NCBI GenBank assembly: GCA_963736745.1
Contig: CAVTQD010000026.1
Coordinates: forward strand, 64,830 to 128,829
Source of the DNA: an uncultured Verrucomicrobiae bacterium
GTDB taxonomy: Bacteria; Verrucomicrobiota; Verrucomicrobiia; Chthoniobacterales; JAFAMB01
Direction of reading: 5' to 3'
DNA: 64,000 nt
A model generated the notes under the pieces. The model saw nothing but the letters and a program-made list of their open reading frames with translations, had not been told where the DNA came from and did not search any database. Of this stretch, positions 3,613 to 53,421 are shown piece after piece (the first letter of the stretch is position 1; every line of letters starts with the position of its first letter). The position numbers and the translations under genes were made by a program.

Positions 3613-4938
3613 ATGAAACACATATTCGAAATGAAACTCTTCACACGGCTTGCTTCTGCAGGCGTTATTGCAGCTTACGCTCTCTCTTCAGGCTTGTGCT
3701 ACGCGCAACAAGCCACCCCGGCTCCAAGTCCGGCGGTCGTCTGCTGACGGCAAGGAGAGCAAGGAAGCGAAGAAAGTCGTAGAGCAACCGAAACCACCGG
3801 AACCACGATTCAAACTCTACGGCTGGATCGAGGCAGGGATCACCGGCAATCCGGACTCGCCGATCGATAGCCACAACTTCGGTCATCTGTGGACCGACCG
3901 CGCCAATGAACCGCTCCTGAATCAAATATCAATTGTCGGCGAGCGGGCTCTGGACCCGAATGCCACTGGGTTCGACTGGGGATTTAAAGCTTGGTTCATG
4001 TATGGGAGTGACGCTCGATACTCGAAATCGGTGGGATTCCTGGATCTCGTCACCAACGACCGAGTCCAGCCTGATTTTCCTGAGCTTTACGCGAGCGTCC
4101 ACATTCCGATTCCCGCAACGTCGGGGCTCGATGTGAAAGCCGGAAAGTACCAGGACCCGATGTCGGCGGAAACTTTTGATCCGCGCAACAGTGTTTTCTA
4201 TTCCCATAGCTATATTTTCAATTTCGGGATCCCTGAGAATGATACGGGTCTTCTAGCCGTACTGCATGCGAATAAATACCTCGATATTTACGCCGGAGTG
4301 AACCGTGGAGTTAATATGACGTTTAGCTGATAATAACTCCTCGGTCGCATTCGAAGGTGGGTTCGGCCTGAATTTGCTGGATGGCAATTTAACGGTCGTT
4401 GCACTCACGCACGATGGTCCGGAAGATACCCTCAACAATGTGCGACTGGCGTTATCTGAACGACATCACGACAACCTGGAAGATTACCAAGAACTTCACT
4501 TCCATCACAGATTTGAACCTGATCTATGATACTTTAGGCAACGGCAAATGGGGCGGCGGTGGTGCGCAGTATTTTACCTATGCCCTGAACGATTGGCTGC
4601 AACTTGGTGTGCGCGGCGAAATTTTTCGCGATTCACAGGGATTTTATGTCGCCCAGTTTCGCGCAAATAACGATTTCATTCACTTTGTGCGCGGCGATAA
4701 CGTCTTCCGTCCCGAATTTCCCAGCGATCCCAGCAACCTGGGGGGAGGCGAAACTACCTACTTCGAAATTACCGGTGGTGTGACCATTAAGCCGCCGCTG
4801 CCGAAACCCGTGGCCGGTTTACTGATTCGCCCTGAGGTCCGCTATGACAGGGCATTAACGGACAGATTCAAGCCGTTCGATCAGAATACCAAGCGAGACC
4901 AGTGGACATTTGGATTGGACTTAGTCCTCGAGTTCTAG
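3613..4938 (+). CDS. Putative outer-membrane beta-barrel / porin-like protein, frame interrupted at least twice as given
   Basis: Signal peptide MKHIFEMKLFTRLASAGVIAAYALSSGLCYAQQ from ATG 3613. Alternating beta-strand-like sequence follows in 3650-4330 and 4399-4938. The protein ends in ...WTFGLDLVLEF, with the C-terminal Phe typical of OM barrels. Confidence 0.55.
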
Positions 4939-5148: not shown

Positions 5149-6148
5149 TTGCTTTGCGATGCTGCGTTGCGTGCCGTCGCTTTCTCCGGTCTATTAACTG
5201 TCGCGCACGCCGAGTCTCTCAAGATCGCTTATAGCGATTGGCCCGGGTGGGTCGCCTGGGAAATTGCCATCCAGAAGAACTGGTTCAAGGAGGCGGGAGT
5301 CGATGTGCAGTTCATGTGGTACGATTACGCGCCCTCCATGGACGCTTATTCGACAGGGAAGGCCGACGCCGTGTGTATGACAAACGGTGATGCTCTGGTC
5401 ACCGGCTCGACCGGCAAACCTTCTGTTGGAATTCTGATCAATGATTTCTCCAGCGGCAACGACATGATTGTCGCCAAGCCCGGAATCGATTCTGTCAAAC
5501 AACTGGCCGGCAAGAAGATTGGAGTCGAGATCGGTCTGGTGGATCATTTGCTTTTGGAGCGGGCGCTCGGGATCAGCGGATTAAGCGATGGTGACGTGAC
5601 ACTCGTCAACACACCGACTAACGAAACGCCGCAGGTACTCGCTTCCGGGGCGGTCGACGCTATCGCAGCCTGGCAACCAAATTCCGGGCAGGCGCTGAAA
5701 ACGGTTCAGGGCTCCAAGCCAATATTTCACCTCTGCCGAGGCTCCGGGATTAATCTACGATTTGCTGTACGTCTCTAGAGAAAGCCTGGAAAAGAATCGC
5801 GCAGAGTGGGCAAAAGTCGTCGCGGTCTGGTATCGCATCGTCAAGTACATGGAGGACCCAGGTAACCTGGATGAGGCTCTGAAAATTCTCGCGGCTCGCG
5901 ACAATGTGAAACCCGAAGAGTACGAGCCGTTCTTAAAAGGCACTCATATCCTATCTCTGAAGGAAGCTCTGCACCACTGGAAGAAAGGAAATGATCTCGA
6001 TTCCCTGTTTGGGTCAACTAAGAATGTCGATGATTTCAACGTCAAAAACGGCGTCTACAAGCAGCATGTGGATTTTCAAGGTTATCTGGATTCAAGCCTG
6101 ACCGAGGAATACGCAAAATCGGCCGCCGCCAAGTCAGCGAGTAAATAG
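5149..6148 (+). CDS. ABC transporter periplasmic substrate-binding protein, NMT1/THI5-like (NitT/TauT family), of the type found next to urea carboxylase genes; one frameshift as given
   Basis: [44 protein letters not shown]...[16 protein letters not shown]. Pieces 5149-5778 and 5762-6148 join near 5750. The true start is uncertain, since ATG 5121/5142 are in another frame. Confidence 0.75.
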
Positions 6149-6234
6149 TGCATCGAGTTCGGCAATTGTGCTCGTGTCGAGGGGTGGCGCCTGCGTCTGC
6201 CCGTGAAGCAACTCGAGAAAGCGAGCAAACGGGA

Positions 6235-7587
6235 ATGAATCAACGGACGGCCAATCAGGAGCGCTGGTTTAAAATCCGGGAAGAACTCTCGGGGCGCCGC
6301 GCAGGTCTTTTGATGGCGCTCTCGTTTCTGCTGCCACTGGCCATCTGGTGTATCGCCAGTTATGTGCCTTTCATTTGGCATCCGGACATTCGGCTTGAAG
6401 TCTCAGCCGATCGCACTGACGTATCGACCGTTTACACAGCGGGAGATCACGTCAGCAAGGAGTTTTTCCCAACATTTCAGAATGCTGTACGAGAGGCGAA
6501 CAATAAAATTCTGGAGAATCGAAAAATTGGTCAGAGTTCGTCCGGATTGATGGTCCGGCGAGATAATCTGAAGAAGCTGCGTCAACTTGCTCCACTGGCG
6601 ATTTCAAATGGGTGGCTTCGGCAAAACCAGCGTGAAGATGACGCAGCAATTTTTGATATCTGGAAGAAGCTTGCGACAGGCGAATTGGTGGCGAAAGAGC
6701 CTGCGCTCAATCCCGAAAACCTGGATATCATTCGTCAGGATTGGGAGATGCTTTCCGCAGCAAGCCCGACTTTTGATGCACGAAAACTGCCTGACCAGGA
6801 GCTGCTCAGCCTGGTACCGCAAGGGAAGCCATCAAATCCCTCTTATCTACCCGCGCCCCACGACGTCCTGGAGACGGGATTGCACAATTTCACTAGTGGC
6901 GGCGAATTGGGTCAGTTATCGCTTTTCAGCCGCCTCCTGATCTCGATTCGCATCGTATTTACCGGGTTCCTCCTGTCGTGTCTGATTGGTGTCCCAATCG
7001 GGATTTTCTGCGGAACATACGCGGCTTGTTCAAAGATCTCGGAGCCGTTCATTGATTTTTTCCGTTATATGCCAGCGCCCGCGTTCAGCACCCTGCTGGT
7101 GGCAATTTTTGGCGCTCATGACGAACCGAAGGTCGCACTTGTCTTCATTGGAACATTCTTCCAAATGGTGCTGGTGATTTCAAAAACGACCCGACAGCTC
7201 GACCACGCCCTTTTGGAAGCCGCGCAAACTCTCGGCGCGAAGCCCCGCCAGCTTTTTACGCATGTCGTGATTCCGGGAATTTTGCCGGAGCTCTATAACG
7301 ACCTTAGAATTCTTCTGGGCTGGTCCTGGACTTGGATGGTGATCGCGGAATTGATTGGCGTTAAGACAGGCCTGACTGAGTTTATCGAAACACAAGGGCG
7401 CTGGCGCAACTTCGACGCCGTTTTCCCCGTCATCATTTTGATTGGATTGATCGGCTTTTTTACCGATCAATTTTTGGGCTGGTTCAGAGGAATTCTATTC
7501 CCCTACACGAAGAGGGCACGCTCTGACAGCGAAGCGGGCGCGCAAAATAGAGCAACCGCCGCCGGTGAGTCAATCGCCGACAGCTGA
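6235..7587 (+). CDS. ABC transporter permease (NitT/TauT family) with long N-terminal extension
   Basis: Core permease motif EAAQTLGAKPRQLFTHVVIPGILPELYNDLRILLGWSWTWMVIAELIG. About 250 aa precede the membrane core. ATG 6235 lies inside the 6148-7587 ORF. Confidence 0.8.
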   Translation: MNQRTANQERWFKIREELSGRRAGLLMALSFLLPLAIWCIASYVPFIWHPDIRLEVSADRTDVSTVYTAGDHVSKEFFPTFQNAVREANNKILENRKIGQSSSGLMVRRDNLKKLRQLAPLAISNGWLRQNQREDDAAIFDIWKKLATGELVAKEPALNPENLDIIRQDWEMLSAASPTFDARKLPDQELLSLVPQGKPSNPSYLPAPHDVLETGLHNFTSGGELGQLSLFSRLLISIRIVFTGFLLSCLIGVPIGIFCGTYAACSKISEPFIDFFRYMPAPAFSTLLVAIFGAHDEPKVALVFIGTFFQMVLVISKTTRQLDHALLEAAQTLGAKPRQLFTHVVIPGILPELYNDLRILLGWSWTWMVIAELIGVKTGLTEFIETQGRWRNFDAVFPVIILIGLIGFFTDQFLGWFRGILFPYTKRARSDSEAGAQNRATAAGESIADS

Positions 7588-15201: not shown

Positions 15202-16466
15202 CTACCAGCTATACCCTGCTCCAATGTCAATTTGTTGAACCCAATAATCTCCTCCTACCTCACCCGAATAGTCAGTGAACACGACAAACGAATCGTTTAT
15301 GCGGTACGAGACTCCGACTAATCCCCATGCCGCGTTACGATCTATGCCCGTCCAGGTATCCAAGTATTCATGCTGCCAGCCAGCCTGTACGTAGGGTGTC
15401 CATTTTCCGGCATGCCATGCCACTCGGCCTCCTACGCGGCTAAAAAGCTCACGCAAGGGTACAAACCCGTCCGCGTAATCGTACTCGATGCTGGCCCATG
15501 GCCCTGCCTCTAGCGAACCAAATCGCCACGCGTAGCCCGTGCCGGCGTACGCGGTCCCGTCGAATCCGTTCGTAGTGCCGTTCGCATCGTAAGCAGTTCC
15601 GCCAGCCAACCCGGCCAAAGTTCCATACCAGCCTCCCCTCCAGAAAGATGTGTAAAGGCCGCCCCTGAAAGTGTTCGCGCTGAAATGCTGGCCGCTCCAC
15701 GAGCCCGAAGTGTAGGTGTAATCGGTTACGACCCCGACCAGCCAATGCGGCGTTACGCGGTAGTCAAGGCCAATAGTGAATTGACCGGCACTATAGTGGC
15801 TATCGTTGAAGTTGTCATAATGCCCGAATAACCCGGTCCCGACCACCCAAACATCCCAACGCTTTCCTGGACGACAGGCGCGCTTGGAACCACGGCTTGC
15901 TTGCCGTCCTTGGTGTACCCTTCCTTGCTGTACCCTTCCTTGCCGTATCCGTACGTGGGGCCTTCCTCGGCCGGTGACTCCTCAGCCCGATCGCGGATCT
16001 CAGCGGCGCGTTGTTCAATTGAACTCGTCACCGCGGCGGCGCCATCAATCGTCGACTGTTCAATGGGCGCAAAAGAGATGCCAGGCGTGGGCCGTGGTGT
16101 TGGAGTCGGCGAAGGCGAAGGAGTCGGGGAACCGCCACCGGACGGCGTCGGATGCGGCGTTGGGGTCGGAGTTGGTGTTGGAGAACCACCACCGGACGGT
16201 GTTGGGTGCGGTGTCGGTGTTGGTGTTGGTGTTGGTGAGTGGCCCGGTGTGGGAGTTGGCGTCGGTGTCGGGCGCGGCGTGGGGGTTGGCGTCGGTGTTT
16301 GGACGCGGCGTGGGGGTCGGCGTCGGGCGCGGCGTGGGGGTGGGGGTCGGTGTGGTGTCGGCGTGGGCGTCGGCGCCGCCAAACTCCGATCAAGCCCCAA
16401 GCCGCAAATATTAACGATTAGAAAGAGCGCTGTCGCCGCTGCAAAGTAGCGTTTTACGTGTCTCAT
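15202..16466 (-). CDS. Small autotransporter: signal peptide, Pro/Thr-rich tract, C-terminal beta-barrel translocator domain; one frameshift as given
   Basis: Piece 15753-16466 reads [22 protein letters not shown]..., then about 100 aa of PTPTP-type sequence. Piece 15202-15846 carries the barrel: [23 protein letters not shown]...GLYTSFW...AGWQHEY...[37 protein letters not shown], with a terminal aromatic residue. The shift lies near 15800-15850. Confidence 0.7.
16062..16375. repeat. Low-complexity Pro/Thr-coding repeat tract inside the autotransporter gene
   Basis: The plus strand is G-rich (GGCGTSGG-type words). It encodes PTPTPTP runs on the minus strand and includes a direct duplication, [18 protein letters not shown] x2. 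Confidence 0.6.
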
Positions 16467-45180: not shown

Positions 45181-46996
45181 GTTGTTGTTCCTTTGATGCT
45201 CTTTCTGGCCACAGGAAGATCGAAGTAAAACTCGCTCCCCTCGCCCGGTGTGCTATGAAGTCCAATGCTTCCGCCGTGCGAAACGACGATTTCCTTGGCG
45301 ATGGCAAGCCCAAGTCCGACCCCATTCGATTCTTCGGTCCCTGGAATCCGGAAAAACCTTTCAAAAACGCGTGATTGAAACTCCTTCGAAATGCCAGGTC
45401 CATGATCCAGCACCGAGAAACGAACGGTTTTACCAACCGATTTCACAGACAATACAACATCCTCACCGGGTTTAGAGAACCTTGCGGCATTCGAGACCAA
45501 ATTGGAAAATACGTGATTAATCTGGCGGGAATCGACCATCACCTCCGGGAGATCCGGCGCAATTTCCGCCACCAATTGCGTGTCGTGTGCTTCCACCAGC
45601 GAACGCAGGTCAGGGAGCGCCTCTTCGACCAGCTTACCCGGCGAGACGGCCTCCAGCAGCTGCCGCGTCTGGCCGGACTCCAGGCGTGCCAAATCCAGAA
45701 GGTCATTGATCATCCGCAGAAGACGTTCCGAGTCTTCCCGCGCCGCTACCAACAATTCGAGCTGTTTTGGATTGAGCGGACCGATTCTCTCCTCCAGCAA
45801 CAGGTGAAGTCCCATGCGAATGCTTGTCAGCGGAGTTTTCAGCTCGTGGCTGACGGTCGAAACCAGATTCGTCTTCACCTCGTCCATCAGGCGGAACCGG
45901 GTTACATCCTGCAAAACCAGGGCAGCTCCGAACATATTCCCCGCCTCGTCGCGCATTCCGATGACCCTGGGCAGCAGGAAGGTCTCATGATCGTCAATTC
46001 GAACCGGAATTGCCTTTTCAAAGCTCGTCGGAACGCTGTCCGGGGCGCCCTTCAGCACCTTTCCAACCTCTTCCTGGATTGCAAGCGGGAGCCCATACTC
46101 GCCGTTAAGCTTCTGAAGAAGCTTTCCGGCCGCTGGATTGGCAAAATTGATTTTTCCGTCAAGCGAGAGCGCCAGGATAGAGTCGGGGAACGCAGAGAAA
46201 GTGATCTCCGTCATGTGGCGCGCCTGCGAGAGCTGGTCCGTTGTGGTCTGACGGTAAACCCGCAATCTTGCAGCGAGTTTATTGAAAGCGTCGGCGAGCT
46301 GCCCGAGTTCATCGTGGGACTCCACGGGCACCACCTGGTCAAGCTTGCCTTCACCCAGTTCTTTGGAGACCGTGGTCAAGGTCTGGATCGGTTTAAGAAT
46401 GGCTCGCTGCAGTCCGTATCCTAGGGCGATTGCCAAGGCGACACCAAACACCAGGAGGACCACCATGGCTTGGGTGGAATCGGCGCTCAGCGATCTGGCA
46501 TGGTGGTCCGCCAGCACCATGTTCTCCTGGTTGATGCGAATAACTTCCTGGGCGTTGTTCTTGATCTCGGTAAACAACGGCAAAAGCTCGGTGAAATACA
46601 TCTTGCGCCTGGCATCCGGTTCGGACGTCTCCCAAAAAGTCTGCGCCAGCACCTGATAGCGACTTTCGGCTTCCCTGATTTTATTCGCTATTTCCCCTTC
46701 CACAGGGAGAGTGATGTTGTTCAGCTCCTTCTGAAGACTTTCTGAATAATCGGAACATTTTCGTTGAAAAGATCGCGCCCTCTTCGCTCTTCTCCAGCCA
46801 TGGCAAACGAAATCCCCGAGTCCATTCGTTCCGCACTTTCTTTCATCTGCTGGCCCGCGAGCACGCTCTCGTAATTCTCCTTCAGAATCACGTTGATCGA
46901 CCCGCCGAGACGATTGAACAGCAAGACCGCGTACAAACCGACACCTAGAAAAAGAATCAGAATCGGGCAGAGCCACAGAAGTATTCGCCGCTTCAT
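45177..46996 (-). CDS. Sensor histidine kinase (TM, HAMP, PAS, HisKA, HATPase_c); one frameshift as given
   Basis: The N-terminal piece 46721-46996 reads MKRRILLWLCPILILFLGVGLYAVLLF. The main ORF 45177-46976 carries HAMP (ELGQLADAFNKLAARL), H-box VSHELKTPLTSI, N/G boxes NLVSNAARFS and DHGPGI...GLGLAIAKEIV. The shift lies near 46760. Confidence 0.85.
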
Positions 46997-47325
46997 GATG
47001 CCGATCTCGCAGACTTCGGATAAATCAAACAGGTCCTTGCCGGTGAATCTGCAAACCTGAAGAGACGAGTCTCCAGACCTGGAGGACCATCCAAATTTCG
47101 TATGATACTGTCCATTCTCGTTCTCGGTTGCAATAGAGCGTCTAAAGCGTAAGCCATGCCAAAAACTGTCGAATTACAAAGTGCCCTGATTATCAGCTAC
47201 TTACGAACGAGACAGGTGGGCTGCGAACAAGATCCGACTCGCACCTCGCGAGTTTGCATCCAAAAAGGACTCGCATTTTGCGAGTCATTCCGTGGTGACA
47301 GCGACATGGAAAGAAGGCTTCGAAG

Positions 47326-49195
47326 CAGCGCGGAAATCGTTGACGATCTTGGATGCCCATCCGCAGTGAACACCGACACAGGCTGGAAGCCTATGCTACA
47401 TTGCTCTCCGGACAGGTGGGGCCAGGGAGCGAGAGCGCTCTGCAAGCATGCCCCGCGTACCCACAGTGAGCGAGCCACGGCGCAAAGTAGCATAGGCTTC
47501 CAGCCTGTATTTTGCTCGCGTTGTGCGGGGCCGTTGAACCAGCGCGGAAATCCTTGACGATCTTGGGGCCCATCCGCAGTGAACACCGACACAGGCTGGA
47601 AGCCTATGCTACATTGCTCTCCGGACAGGTGGGGCCAGGGAGCGAACGCGCTCTGCAAGCATGCCCCCCGTACCCACAGTGAGCGAGCCACGGCGCAAAG
47701 TAGCATAGGCTTTCAGCCTGTATTTTGCTCGCGTTGTGCGGGGCCTTTGAACCAGCGCGGAAATCCTTGACGATCTTGGGGCCCATCCGCAGTGAACACC
47801 GACACAGGCTGGAAGCCTATGCTACATTGCTCTCCGGACAGGTGGGGCCAGGGAGCGAACGCGCTCTGCAAGCATGCCCCCCGTACCCACAGTGAACGAG
47901 CCACGGCGCAAAGTAGCATAGGCTTTCAGCCTGTATTTTGCTCGCGTTGTGCGGGGCCGTTGAACCAGCGCGGAAATCCTTGACGATCTTGGGGCCCATC
48001 CGCAGTGAACGCCGACACAGGCTGGAAGCCTATGCTACATTGGTCTCCGGACAGGTGGGGCCAGGGAGCGAACGCGCTCTGCAAGCATGCCCCCCGTACC
48101 CACAGTGAGCGAGCCACGGCGCAAAGTAGCATAGGCTTTCAGCCTGTATTTTGCTCGCGTTGTGCGGGGCCTTTGAACCAGCGCGGAAATCGTTGACGAT
48201 CTTGGATGCCCATCCGCAGTGAACGCCGACACAGGCTGGAAGCCTATGCTACATTGCTCTCCGGACAGGTGGGGCCAGGGAGCGAACGCGCTCTGCAAGC
48301 ATGCCCCCCGTACCCACAGTGAGCGAGCCACGGCGCAAAGTAGCATAGGCTTCCAGCCTGTATTTTGCTCGCGTTGTGCGGGGCCTTTGAACCAGCGCGG
48401 AAATCCTTGACGATCTAGGGCCCATCCGCAGTGAACACCGACACAGGCTGGAAGCCTATGCTACATTGGTCTCCGGACAGGTGGGGCCAGGGAGCGAACG
48501 CGCTCTGCAAGCATGCCCCCCGTACCCACAGTGAACGAGCCACGGCGCAAAGTGGCATAGGCTTTCAGCCTGTATTTTGCTCGCGTTGTGCGGGGCCTTT
48601 GAACCAGCGCGGAAATCCTTGACGATCTTGGGGCCCATCCGCAGTGAACACCGACACAGGCTGGAAGCCTTTGCTACATTGCTCTCCGGACAGGTGGGGC
48701 CAGGGAGCGAACGCGCTCTGCAAGCATGCCCCCCGTACCCACAGTGAGCGAGCCACGGCGCAAAGTAGCATAGGCTTCCAGCCTGTATTTTGCTCGCGTT
48801 GTGCGGGGCCTTTGAACCAGCGCGGAAATCCTTGACGATCTTGGGGCCCATCCGCAGTGAACGCCGACACAGGCTGGAAGCCTTTGCTACATTGCTCTCC
48901 GGACAGGTGGGGCCAGGGAGCGAACGCGCTCTGCAAGCATGTCCGCGTACCCACAGTGAGCGAGCCACGGCGCAATGTAGCATAGGCTTCCAGCCTGTAT
49001 TTTGCTCGCGTTGTGCGGGGCCTTTGAACCAGCGCGGAAATCCTTGACGATCTTGGATGCCCATCCGCAGTGAACACCGACACAGGCTGGAAGCCTATGC
49101 TACATTGCTCTCCGGACAGGTGGGGCCAGGGAGCGAAAGCGCTCTGCAAGAATGCCCCCCGTACCCACAGTGAATGAGCCACGGCGCAAAGTAGC
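47326..49195. repeat. Tandem array: 8 full plus 1 truncated copies of a 213-bp structured unit
   Basis: Unit starts are at 47326, 47540, 47753, 47966, 48179, 48393, 48605, 48818 and 49030, with lengths of 212-214. Each unit holds the 21-bp inverted repeat CAGGCTGGAAGCCTATGCTAC / GTAGCATAGGCTTCCAGCCTG around an 87-nt insert, then TATTTTG. Units differ by a few substitutions or 1-nt indels. Confidence 0.95.
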
Positions 49196-49258
49196 TGACT
49201 TCAGAGGTCCACCACAAACCAAGTAAACGGAAAATTCGCAAAGCGACACCGAGACCGA

Positions 49259-51510: not shown

Positions 51511-52431
51511 TCAGTTTTCAATCGGTGATTGGTCATGCACGGTGGCGCGCCGCCTCTCCAGCTCTGTTGCGACTACCCGGCTGATATCCGCCATCGGAAG
51601 CGGCCGTATCATTTGCGCGTGCCGGCAGACAACCGGGTGAACAACAATCTGCCCCGTGACGTAGCGTCTCCAGGCCTCCGTTGGAGGATTGATTTCCTCC
51701 TCGGTCGAGGTGAAAAGCAAAATATCGCCATCGAATTTTGCCGGAACAAAATTGCCCGCCAAACGTACGTTGTTTCTGTAGATCGCCAGCATTGCGCTGA
51801 GGTGATGGTCTTCGAGGTCAAATAGGACTTCACCCTCTCGACGGAGGCGCTTCTTGATGTCTGACAAGTTAAGCGGTTGTTCCGAAAAGCCTGCTGGATC
51901 GTATCCGAGTGCCTCGAGTTGGGCGATGATGATTTCTCGGTCGCCAGGGATGGTGAGCGGAATCTCTGAATCGATGGGGTAGCTGTCGAGCAGGACAAGG
52001 AGAGCAACTTTCTCGCCTTGAAGCTGGAGGCGACCTGCCAGCGAGTGAGCCACAAGTCCGCCAAAGGACCAGCCGAGCAGATGATAAGGGCCAACCGGTT
52101 GAATTGCGCGAATTTGATCGAGATAATCGGCCACCATCTCATCCAGAGTGTGGGGAGAACTCTCCGAATGATTAAAACCGCGTGCCTGCAGGCCGTAAAT
52201 TGGATAGTCGGGGCTGATGTGCTGCAGAAACCGCGCGTAGCACCAGCAGAGGCCGCCGGCTGGGTGGACACAGAAAATTGGTGCGAGGCTTCCCTCTGCC
52301 CTGAGCGGCAGTATGACGCCTACTGAACCGGCATCGGCTTCGAACCGACCCGCGAGCTTGGCAACAGTCGGCGCTTCAAATACGCTACGGATCGGTAGCT
52401 CAACGCCCAGCGTACTCCGGATGCGGCTCAC
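51511..52431 (-). CDS. NRPS terminal fragment: end of PCP plus thioesterase (TE) domain
   Basis: [25 protein letters not shown] (PCP helix 3-4), then TE: [14 protein letters not shown]...[15 protein letters not shown]...LLDSYP. It is separated from the upstream part by a frame change inside the PCP (C5 run 52457-52461). Confidence 0.85.
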
Positions 52432-53421
52432 AAGACGCGTCGCCAGCAGTGAGTGGCCCCCAGTTCAAAGAAGTTGTCGTCCATACCAACCCTGGGAACC
52501 GCCAGAGGTCTCGGCAAAGAGCGAGCAGAGGATCTCTTCCTGCGCTGTTCGCGGGGCACGATAAGCGGAGCACAGCTGGGATCTCCGGGGCCGGCAGTGC
52601 CTTACGGTCCAGCTTGCCGTTCGGCGTCAAGGGCAGAGCATCCAACGCACGATCGCGGCCGGAACCATGTATTCGGGCAGAGTTTGAACCAGGTGGGCAC
52701 GGAGGGCGGCGAAATCGGGGCCCTGGCCTTCGGCCGGTACCACGTGGCCCGACCAGCCGCTTGTCGCCCGGACGATCTTCTCGAGCCAGCACGGCAGCTT
52801 GACCCACCTCAGGATGGCGCAGCAGCGCCGCTTCGATCTCGCCGGGCTCAATGCGGAAGCCCCGGATCTTGACTCGCTGGTCCACCCGGCCCAAAAACTC
52901 CAGCACCCCATCGGCATGCCACCGCCCGAGGTCTCCAGTACGATACATCCGGCTGCCCGGAGGCCCGTAAGGATCAGCCACGAAACGCTCGGAGCTCAAC
53001 CCTGGCTGCCGGTGATAACCCCGCGCCAGCCCCACCCCGGCGATGTAGAGTTCACCGGCAACCCCAACGGGTACCTGCTGAAGGTTCCCATCCAGCACAT
53101 ATACCCGCGTGTTCAAAATCGGCCGCCCTATGCCAGGCGCGCACACCCCATCCTCATCCACCTCCAGGCAGGTGGACCAAATCGTCGTCTCCGTCGGCCC
53201 ATAGAGGTTGGTCACCCGGGCATCCCCCGGAAGTTCGCAGTTTCTGCCAGAGCCCCCTGGACAAGGCTTCTCCGCCCACCAGCATCCTCAGCCCGCCAAG
53301 ATCCGGAGCACTGTTGGTAACCGCGTTCCAAAGTGTCGGGGTCGCCTGCAGCATCGTCGTGCCACTTGCCTTGATCATTCCGATCAGTGCCGCTGGATCC
53401 TGAACTGTCTCCCAGGCACAA
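52400..53421 (-). CDS. NRPS last-module adenylation domain, C-terminal half, at least 5 frame changes as given
   Basis: Pieces in three frames read [150 protein letters not shown]. This is a near-copy of 55750-56200. Confidence 0.8.

Follow-up and report, generated by a model that had tools for sequence, protein, structure and literature searches.

The stretch of DNA analysed here, hereafter the window, comprises 64 kb of contig CAVTQD010000026.1 from an uncultured Verrucomicrobiae bacterium. Within it, a 2.26-kb intergenic gap separates the start of a histidine-kinase gene linked to kdpABC (46996) from the end of a carrier-protein gene (49259) that closes an operon for a nonribosomal peptide synthetase (NRPS), and the genes on either side are both encoded on the minus strand. 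Most of the gap is occupied by a tandem array of ~1.9 kb (47318–49195, no strand assigned) in which a 213-bp unit recurs 8.8 times. The array is very probably a cluster of Repetitive Extragenic Palindromes (REPs), arranged like a bacterial interspersed mosaic element (BIME) or a tandem REPIN. It would thereby fall into a GTAG-tagged REP family, widespread in Verrucomicrobiota and Planctomycetota, whose partner is a REP-associated tyrosine transposase (RAYT) of the HUH/Y1 type.

Anatomy of the array

Tandem Repeats Finder (TRF) reports a single array over 47318–49195 with a period of 213, 8.8 copies, 96% matches, 0% indels and a score of 3477. At 61% GC, it is richer than the window as a whole (55%). 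Successive units are 214/213/213/213/214/212/213/212 bp long, and the last unit breaks off at 49195, straight after GCAAAGTAGC. An earlier description of the locus, made from the letters of the window and called here the sequence-only reading, had reported a near-identical 213-bp array of 8.8 copies, with which TRF agrees. Unit alignment places its nine unit starts in register and bears out its unit lengths, and its end point for the last unit, 49195, and its gene context (kinase start, carrier-protein gene end, NRPS operon beyond) are likewise correct. The same reading held that the whole unit repeats without unique spacers; indeed, both spacers described below are themselves repeated at 96% identity. 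Open reading frames (ORFs) of 133–205 aa within the array gave zero Pfam matches.

Two other classes of repeat array were considered and rejected. A CRISPR array, with its direct repeats of 24–48 nt and unique spacers of similar length, does not fit because the whole 213-bp unit repeats, no unique spacers are present and the short repeats alternate in orientation. For an integron attC array, or a cluster of attC sites lacking an integrase (CALIN), inspection of the sequence revealed no cassette ORFs and no R''/R' core-site pairs.

Every unit contains two inverted copies of a 22-nt core, GTAGCATAGGCTTCCAGCCTGT, whose arms reach 27 nt. Within the core, an unpaired GTAG and one base (C) precede a 7-bp stem (ATAGGCT/AGCCTGT) with a 3-nt loop (TCC); the stem carries one G.T pair at position 2 and has an AT-rich base (ATAG). 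The combination of a GTAG tag, a 7-bp stem and a 3-nt loop is the signature of REPs. For GTAG REPs, a stem of 5–13 bp and a loop of 2–20 nt have been specified (PMC3733652), and the tag is expected 0–2 nt 5' of the hairpin; the stem and loop lie within these ranges, and the GTAG/GTGG tag is so placed in all 17 copies. These 17 copies of the 22-mer, against 0.00 expected by chance, alternate in orientation and all lie in the array; the 22-mer is absent from the rest of the 64-kb window. The tag reads GTAG in 16 of them and GTGG in one.

The minus-strand REPs of units 1 to 9 lie at 47378–47399 (0 mismatches; the plus strand reads ACAGGCTGGAAGCCTATGCTAC), 47591–47612, 47804–47825, 48017–48038, 48231–48252, 48443–48464, 48656–48677, 48869–48890 and 49082–49103. 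Those on the plus strand, in units 1 to 8, are found at 47487–47508 (reading GTAGCATAGGCTTCCAGCCTGT), 47700–47721 (one mismatch, a loop variant reading TTTCAG), 47913–47934, 48126–48147, 48340–48361, 48552–48573 (two mismatches, with the GTGG tag), 48765–48786 and 48977–48998. Neighbouring cores are 87 nt and 82 nt apart by turns. PMC3733652 supplies the terms for these arrangements: the 87-nt interval defines a tail-to-tail (TT) dimer with the tags pointing inward, as formed by the two REPs of unit 1 across the spacer at 47400–47486, which has no strand. The 82-nt interval defines a head-to-head (HH) dimer, as formed by the second REP of unit 1 and the first of unit 2; the spacer between them (47509–47590, likewise without strand) is made up of weakly complementary outer arms and a 32-nt linker. 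The array terminus at 49195 falls just past the GTAGC (49191–49195, plus strand) of a would-be 18th REP, of which nothing further is present.

Folded as single-stranded DNA, the GTAG strand of a REP forms a hairpin of −5.3 kcal/mol, the opposite strand being less stable. A full unit folds into a single long hairpin of −91.4 kcal/mol on the plus strand and −99.5 kcal/mol on the minus strand, more stable in both cases than shuffled sequences (z −2.7 and −3.9, respectively). Such stability could favour an array of small-RNA (sRNA) genes, each unit transcribing a structured RNA of ~130–180 nt that regulates the kdp or NRPS neighbours or acts in trans. Also in keeping with sRNA genes are a terminator-like hairpin followed by ATTTTG in each unit, found on the plus strand only (8 in the array versus 3.0 expected; 9 in the scanned region), and the ~74% conservation of the 87-nt inner spacer in other Verrucomicrobiae. 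However, the fold stability comes almost wholly from the pairing of the two REPs, and the inner-spacer hairpins seem to differ between two sub-families in an alignment judged by eye. A sigma-70 consensus scan gave no promoter-like site on either strand. The Rfam search that the sequence-only reading had advised was run and gave no match, neither for the whole window at gathering thresholds nor for a 2.5-kb region even at E ≤ 10. Genes for sRNAs are thus a very improbable explanation of the array, and two further observations given below add to the case against them.

Variation among the nine units is limited to 19 alignment columns, and in nine of these the variants are common to non-adjacent units; the GGATGCCC variant, carried by units 1, 5 and 9, is one example. 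This bears on whether the array is an artefact, that is, whether a long-read assembler multiplied one REP dimer or a small cluster into about nine copies. Frameshifted genes are frequent both in the window and in related contigs, as in uncorrected long-read assemblies, and unit lengths differ by ±1 nt, as an artefact would allow. Because such indel noise is typical of long-read assembly, the exact copy number and the 212- and 214-bp unit lengths are provisional. However, a mosaic of variants common to non-adjacent units is not what random read error or a simple assembly stutter would produce, and it argues for real paralogous copies that were reshuffled by recombination. Along with the arrays in other genomes described below, this makes an assembly artefact highly unlikely. 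A clean four-unit higher-order repeat, which the variant in units 1, 5 and 9 might bring to mind, was rejected because the difference matrix is mosaic and non-periodic.

The REP family and its transposase in other genomes

A 21-mer scan covering one genome per species recovered at least 115 loci with the motif. The 115 loci listed comprise 71 from Verrucomicrobiota, 35 from Planctomycetota, one from Lentisphaeria and eight others; the Planctomycetota loci come in part from cultured isolates, for example Novipirellula rosea, Novipirellula sp. SH528, Allorhodopirellula solitaria, Rhodopirellula maiorica and Roseimaritima sediminicola. Several metagenome-assembled genomes (MAGs) and Novipirellula rosea have at least five loci each among the matches listed. 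The REPs occur as singles, convergent pairs ~108 nt apart, divergent pairs and clusters, and also as head-to-tail arrays with periods of 24–141 nt, isolate genomes included. When 188 copies from other genomes are compared, conservation is confined to precisely the 22-mer with its tag, although the search pattern biases this result. Long ORFs tend not to cover the copies: the longest ORF over a copy has a median length of 393 nt, versus 1250 nt at random positions. In related genomes, the family is multi-copy, dispersed and mostly extragenic. It is not a phage feature, as only five of 2.9 million viral contigs carry the motif; further, two units compared by BLAST with plasmid and phage collections gave no match.

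The window's hairpin element (~140 nt) shares ~74% identity with elements dispersed in Verrucomicrobiae MAGs, as does its TT spacer with the spacers of the dispersed dimers, and the inverted arms of those elements extend farther outward than the window's. Some of the dispersed REP-dimer elements (in loci L010, L042, L045 and L058) are flanked by a second palindromic repeat, CCAGGGTTGAAACCCTGG, with examples at 4582–4599 and 4904–4921 of L058; it is absent from the window. Short-period head-to-tail arrays of the 22-mer (26–29 or 52 nt) were seen in L084 (5706–5804), L059 (5924–6058), L064 (6663–6957) and L099 (5538–5753, Roseimaritima sediminicola JC651), the last with eight copies; this cluster architecture is unlike the window's alternating dimers. 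The eight listed loci outside the Planctomycetes–Verrucomicrobia–Chlamydiae (PVC) superphylum, among them L049 (Dulcicalothrix), L050 and L104 (Acidobacteriota MAGs), L052, L054, L074 and L092, may be due to horizontal transfer, to mis-binning of contigs or to chance.

The association with a transposase was found in the collected loci. Earlier screens of these loci for RAYT genes with a regular expression, and with phmmer using approximate E. coli RayT and IS608 TnpA queries, had returned nothing. With PVC and Pseudomonas RAYT queries from a paper supplement, a phmmer search of the ORFs led to 5666–6199 of locus L070. Its protein, after hand repair of one frameshift, scores 23.3 bits against Pfam Y1_Tnp (cut-off 23) and matches the NCBIfam model 'REP-associated tyrosine transposase' with an E value of 1.1e-11 and 44.8 bits (curated cut-off 80). 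It contains an HUH motif (MPNHVHALV) and a tyrosine motif (YIRDNP). One copy of the 22-mer lies ~100 nt upstream of the gene and another 15 nt past its stop codon. The frameshift falls near 6195, and a truncated duplicate of the gene (5305–5560) precedes it within the same locus (5305–6310), ending in the same 3' segment plus a REP.

The protein family has 1616 homologues at E ≤ 1e-10, many of them named RayT by JGI. Five further members with 55–76% identity were taken (L126–L130), and the REP or a covarying variant was present on both sides of the RAYT gene in all five. Overall, the RAYT gene is flanked by the REP or a variant in 6/6 loci examined, each from another genome than that of the window. 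The flanking repeats are the canonical REP in L126, GTAGCATAGCCTTCCAGGCTGT in L127, the canonical REP alternating with GTAGCATAAGCATCCTGCTTGT in L128, GGAG-tagged copies in L129 and GTAGAAGAGGCTTCCAGCCTCT in L130, which is from a Planctomycetes MAG. Among these hand-picked variants, four of the seven stem pairs have changed on both sides with pairing kept, 99% of cells are paired, and the covariation score was reached by none of 500 shuffles.

Tandem REP arrays lie beside the RAYT gene in four of the five further loci, with periods of 215, 136, 142 and 92 bp, and the gene sits inside such arrays in L126, L127, L128 and L130. Among these loci, the closest match to the window's array is in L126. 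Upstream of its RAYT gene, 2.3 tandem units with a period of ~215 bp are 85–87% identical to the window unit over 392 nt, TT spacer included, and the similarity ends at the same base as the window's array (49195). An inverted copy downstream of the gene is 83% identical to the window unit. The presence of a window-type tandem unit in this independent assembly speaks against an artefact, as does the frequency of tandem REP clusters beside RAYT genes and in isolate genomes. Further, homologous units on both sides of RAYT genes and in both orientations fit transposase substrates rather than sRNA genes.

The sequence-only reading had seen no mobile-element feature in the unit, and this has to be revised, as the units contain two inverted GTAG-tagged REP hairpins and their homologues flank RAYT genes. 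It had named a match to a known mobile element as an outcome that would refute it; the RAYT-flanking homologues constitute just such a match. Of its three candidate explanations, which included a protein-binding array, the REP-like palindromic element is the supported one, through the REP hairpins and these homologues; the Rfam and promoter results leave the sRNA array without support.

A different kind of mobile element also has to be weighed. The array could be a tandemly duplicated miniature inverted-repeat transposable element (MITE) of a DDE transposase, with the 27-nt inverted repeats serving as terminal inverted repeats and the RAYT association being a coincidence. The dispersed copies in Verrucomicrobiae MAGs are indeed composite palindromes of ~200–340 nt whose inverted arms extend beyond the REPs, as expected of a MITE. 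However, the conserved core is the internal, GTAG-tagged 22-mer and not the element ends, and the motif is also found solitary and in head-to-tail arrays with a period of 26–29 nt. The flanking of all six RAYT loci, with its stem covariation, is hard to ascribe to coincidence. No other transposase type turned up beside the REP, in analyses that included no search aimed at one. A MITE is hardly credible as the source of the array.

Several points weigh against assigning the array to a RAYT-linked REP family. The 64-kb window lacks a RAYT gene, the best tblastn match having an E value of 0.026, and the genome-wide family was seen in relatives and not in the array's own genome, which is represented by 64 kb with array copies only. 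The L070 protein passes the Pfam cut-off barely, stays below that of NCBIfam and required hand repair of its frameshift, and the variants entering the covariation count were chosen by hand from six loci. An exact 22-nt linker sought in a JGI metagenome scan gave only one match, taken as chance; it sits in a coding region, judged secA-like by eye, of a high-GC organism. The G.T-containing, AT-rich stem would fail the strict search descriptor of PMC6006769, which calls for a fully paired basal stem of 7–20 nt with at least three G/C in the first four basal positions. This descriptor is a search filter and not a family definition, and it was derived from mostly proteobacterial REPs. Finally, binding and cleavage of a single-stranded REP at its tag are known only for E. 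coli TnpA-REP (cited in PMC3733652), from which the mobility and RAYT-mediated cleavage of the window's REPs are predicted.

Genomic setting and proposed mechanism

The kinase gene next to the array encodes HAMP, HisKA and HATPase domains and is followed downstream by a response regulator, kdpABC and a separate KdpD-N/Usp gene. It is frameshifted at 46727–46784: residues 1–90 are encoded by 46996–46727 and residues 71–605 by 46784–45183, for comparison with an intact homologue of 606 aa in the related contig L119. The split gene is either a pseudogene or the result of a long-read indel error. On the other side, the PP-binding carrier gene closes an operon of radical-SAM, thioesterase and NRPS genes. 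The last NRPS module (52303–53215, minus strand) shifts frame near 52303–52749, so that the C-terminus of the adenylation domain spans two frames, and kdpA, kdpB and kdpC are split in the related contigs L116–L119. The frame breaks in the NRPS and kdp genes are probably caused by assembly indel noise. Elsewhere in the window, a GC-rich degenerate tandem repeat at 16129–16375 (periods 6, 18, 24, 31 and 54–55 nt) possibly codes for part of a protein of low complexity.

The response regulator has homologues of up to 93% identity, which bear the names Verrucomicrobia or Chthoniobacterales. A planctomycete origin of the window, suggested by similar repeats, was rejected on the strength of these names. 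Four related contigs with a regulator 88–91% identical have kept the kinase–regulator–kdp operon; the array is absent from them, with no REP (≤4 mismatches) within 20 kb. They resemble the window's gap over about its first 310 nt, and the similarity ends near 47286–47310, short of the array. The region upstream of the kinase varies from relative to relative and holds integrase fragments, a TROVE/Ro60 gene or an autotransporter, where the window has the NRPS operon and the array. The variable junction corresponds to 46997–49258 of the window and to 7950–8378 of L116, 6882–8183 of L117 and 7745–8183 of L119. A region that differs in every relative points to a recombination-prone junction, and relatives that keep the operon but lack the array, with similarity stopping before it, indicate a lineage-specific addition at this junction. 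With no RAYT gene within 64 kb, the array is a lineage-specific orphan. The relatives without an array also count against a set of sRNA genes.

Between the array and the kinase start lies a hairpin of ~50 nt (47235–47289) that is 80–88% conserved in the array-less relatives. It is terminator-like on the minus strand, where GACTCGCAAAATGCGAGTC is followed by a T-run, and may be a true terminator or a leader element of the kinase–kdp operon.

A mechanism for the REP cluster can be proposed by analogy with the E. coli TnpA-REP system (Ton-Hoang 2012, summarised in PMC3733652 and PMC6006769). The REP hairpin would form in single-stranded DNA, and the RAYT would recognise it together with the 5' GTAG guide, cleaving and rejoining the DNA there, with the REP dimer as the presumed spreading unit. 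The array may then have grown through alternative processing of intermediates by the RAYT, or through unequal recombination or slippage between units, and gene conversion would hold the units at ~96% identity. The product is most likely selfish or neutral DNA.

An effect on the neighbouring transcripts can nevertheless be envisaged, because the array follows one operon and precedes the next, with all genes on one strand. Stabilisation of mRNA and blocking of read-through have been reported for E. coli REPs. By analogy, the units, each predicted to fold into a hairpin of ~−99 kcal/mol on the strand that encodes the flanking genes, could make the NRPS transcript more stable at its 3' end or prevent read-through from reaching the kinase operon.

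More far-reaching, and rather unlikely, is the proposal that the 22-mer and its RAYT form an ancient system, maintained across Verrucomicrobiota and Planctomycetota, with a role at the level of the host instead of that of a short-lived parasite, and that the arrays are direct RAYT concatemers. The latter is suggested by the array ending exactly at a GTAG tag and by the RAYT genes that sit inside such arrays. If true, it would provide sequence-level support for the array model termed 'alternative processing of REP-carrying intermediates'.

Meaning and comparison with known systems

The array is an unusually large example of an ordinary and known class of selfish repeat. REP clusters, BIMEs, REPINs and REPtrons are all known entities, and earlier work has reported GTAG REPs from the PVC superphylum. 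The locus itself is of little import and should be masked or given the annotation of a REP cluster, not that of a new RNA family or regulator. What has wider bearing is a REP family with a matching RAYT family common to Verrucomicrobiota and Planctomycetota, whose 22-nt core is nearly unchanged across phyla and which search descriptors tuned on Proteobacteria would probably miss. REP dimers in these lineages commonly grow into long tandem arrays, both near the RAYT gene and away from it. For genome analysis, this implies that MAGs built from short reads will collapse such arrays or break there, and that the arrays explain many spurious 'hypothetical proteins' in PVC genomes, such as those predicted from the array ORFs. 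What interest remains attaches to a REP core that stays constant across phyla and to the repeated emergence of long arrays around RAYT genes.

The closest precedent is the GTAG REPs described by Di Nocera, De Gregorio and Rocco (2013, PMC3733652), who reported families GTAG-17 to -21 from Opitutus terrae and Rhodopirellula baltica. Like the window's REPs, these carry an unpaired GTAG at one end of a short stem-loop; like the window's family, they are extragenic and multi-copy, are found singly, as HH and TT dimers and in clusters, are linked to RAYT genes and are present in the PVC superphylum. The window's 22-mer could be matched to no family named there, and its possible translations (GWKPML, LEAYAT and QAGSLCY) are absent from the intragenic PVC REP peptides listed in the same paper. 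An 18-mer of the motif had no occurrence in searchable literature text. Tandem REP clusters that carry along flanking DNA have also been described (PMC3733652), for which a unit of 213 bp and an array of 1.9 kb are large.

The BIMEs and the TnpA-REP/RAYT REPtron of E. coli are covered by Quentin et al. (2018, PMC6006769), where REPs, BIMEs and REPtrons are defined. E. coli BIMEs such as BIME-2 share with the window tandem REPs of alternating orientation and two alternating spacer types, and the REPtron, in which a RAYT gene is flanked by its own REPs (Ton-Hoang et al. 2012; PMC6006769), has its counterpart in L070 and L126–L130. The E. coli spacers are tens of nt long and the REPs measure 35–40 nt with GC-rich stems, whereas the window has spacers of 82 and 87 nt and a stem of 7 bp with an AT-rich base and a G.T pair. 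Binding of gyrase or IHF is known for E. coli BIMEs. The RAYT motifs found here (NHVH, W-H and YIRDNP) have no exact match among the subclass signatures tabulated in PMC6006769. REPINs (Bertels & Rainey 2011, cited in PMC3733652 and PMC6006769) differ from the window in that its doublets are concatenated head to tail 8.8 times and have weakly complementary outer arms. They resemble the present family in that two inverted REPs and a conserved spacer form one long hairpin, and in that the doublet is dispersed many-fold per genome and tied to a single-copy RAYT.

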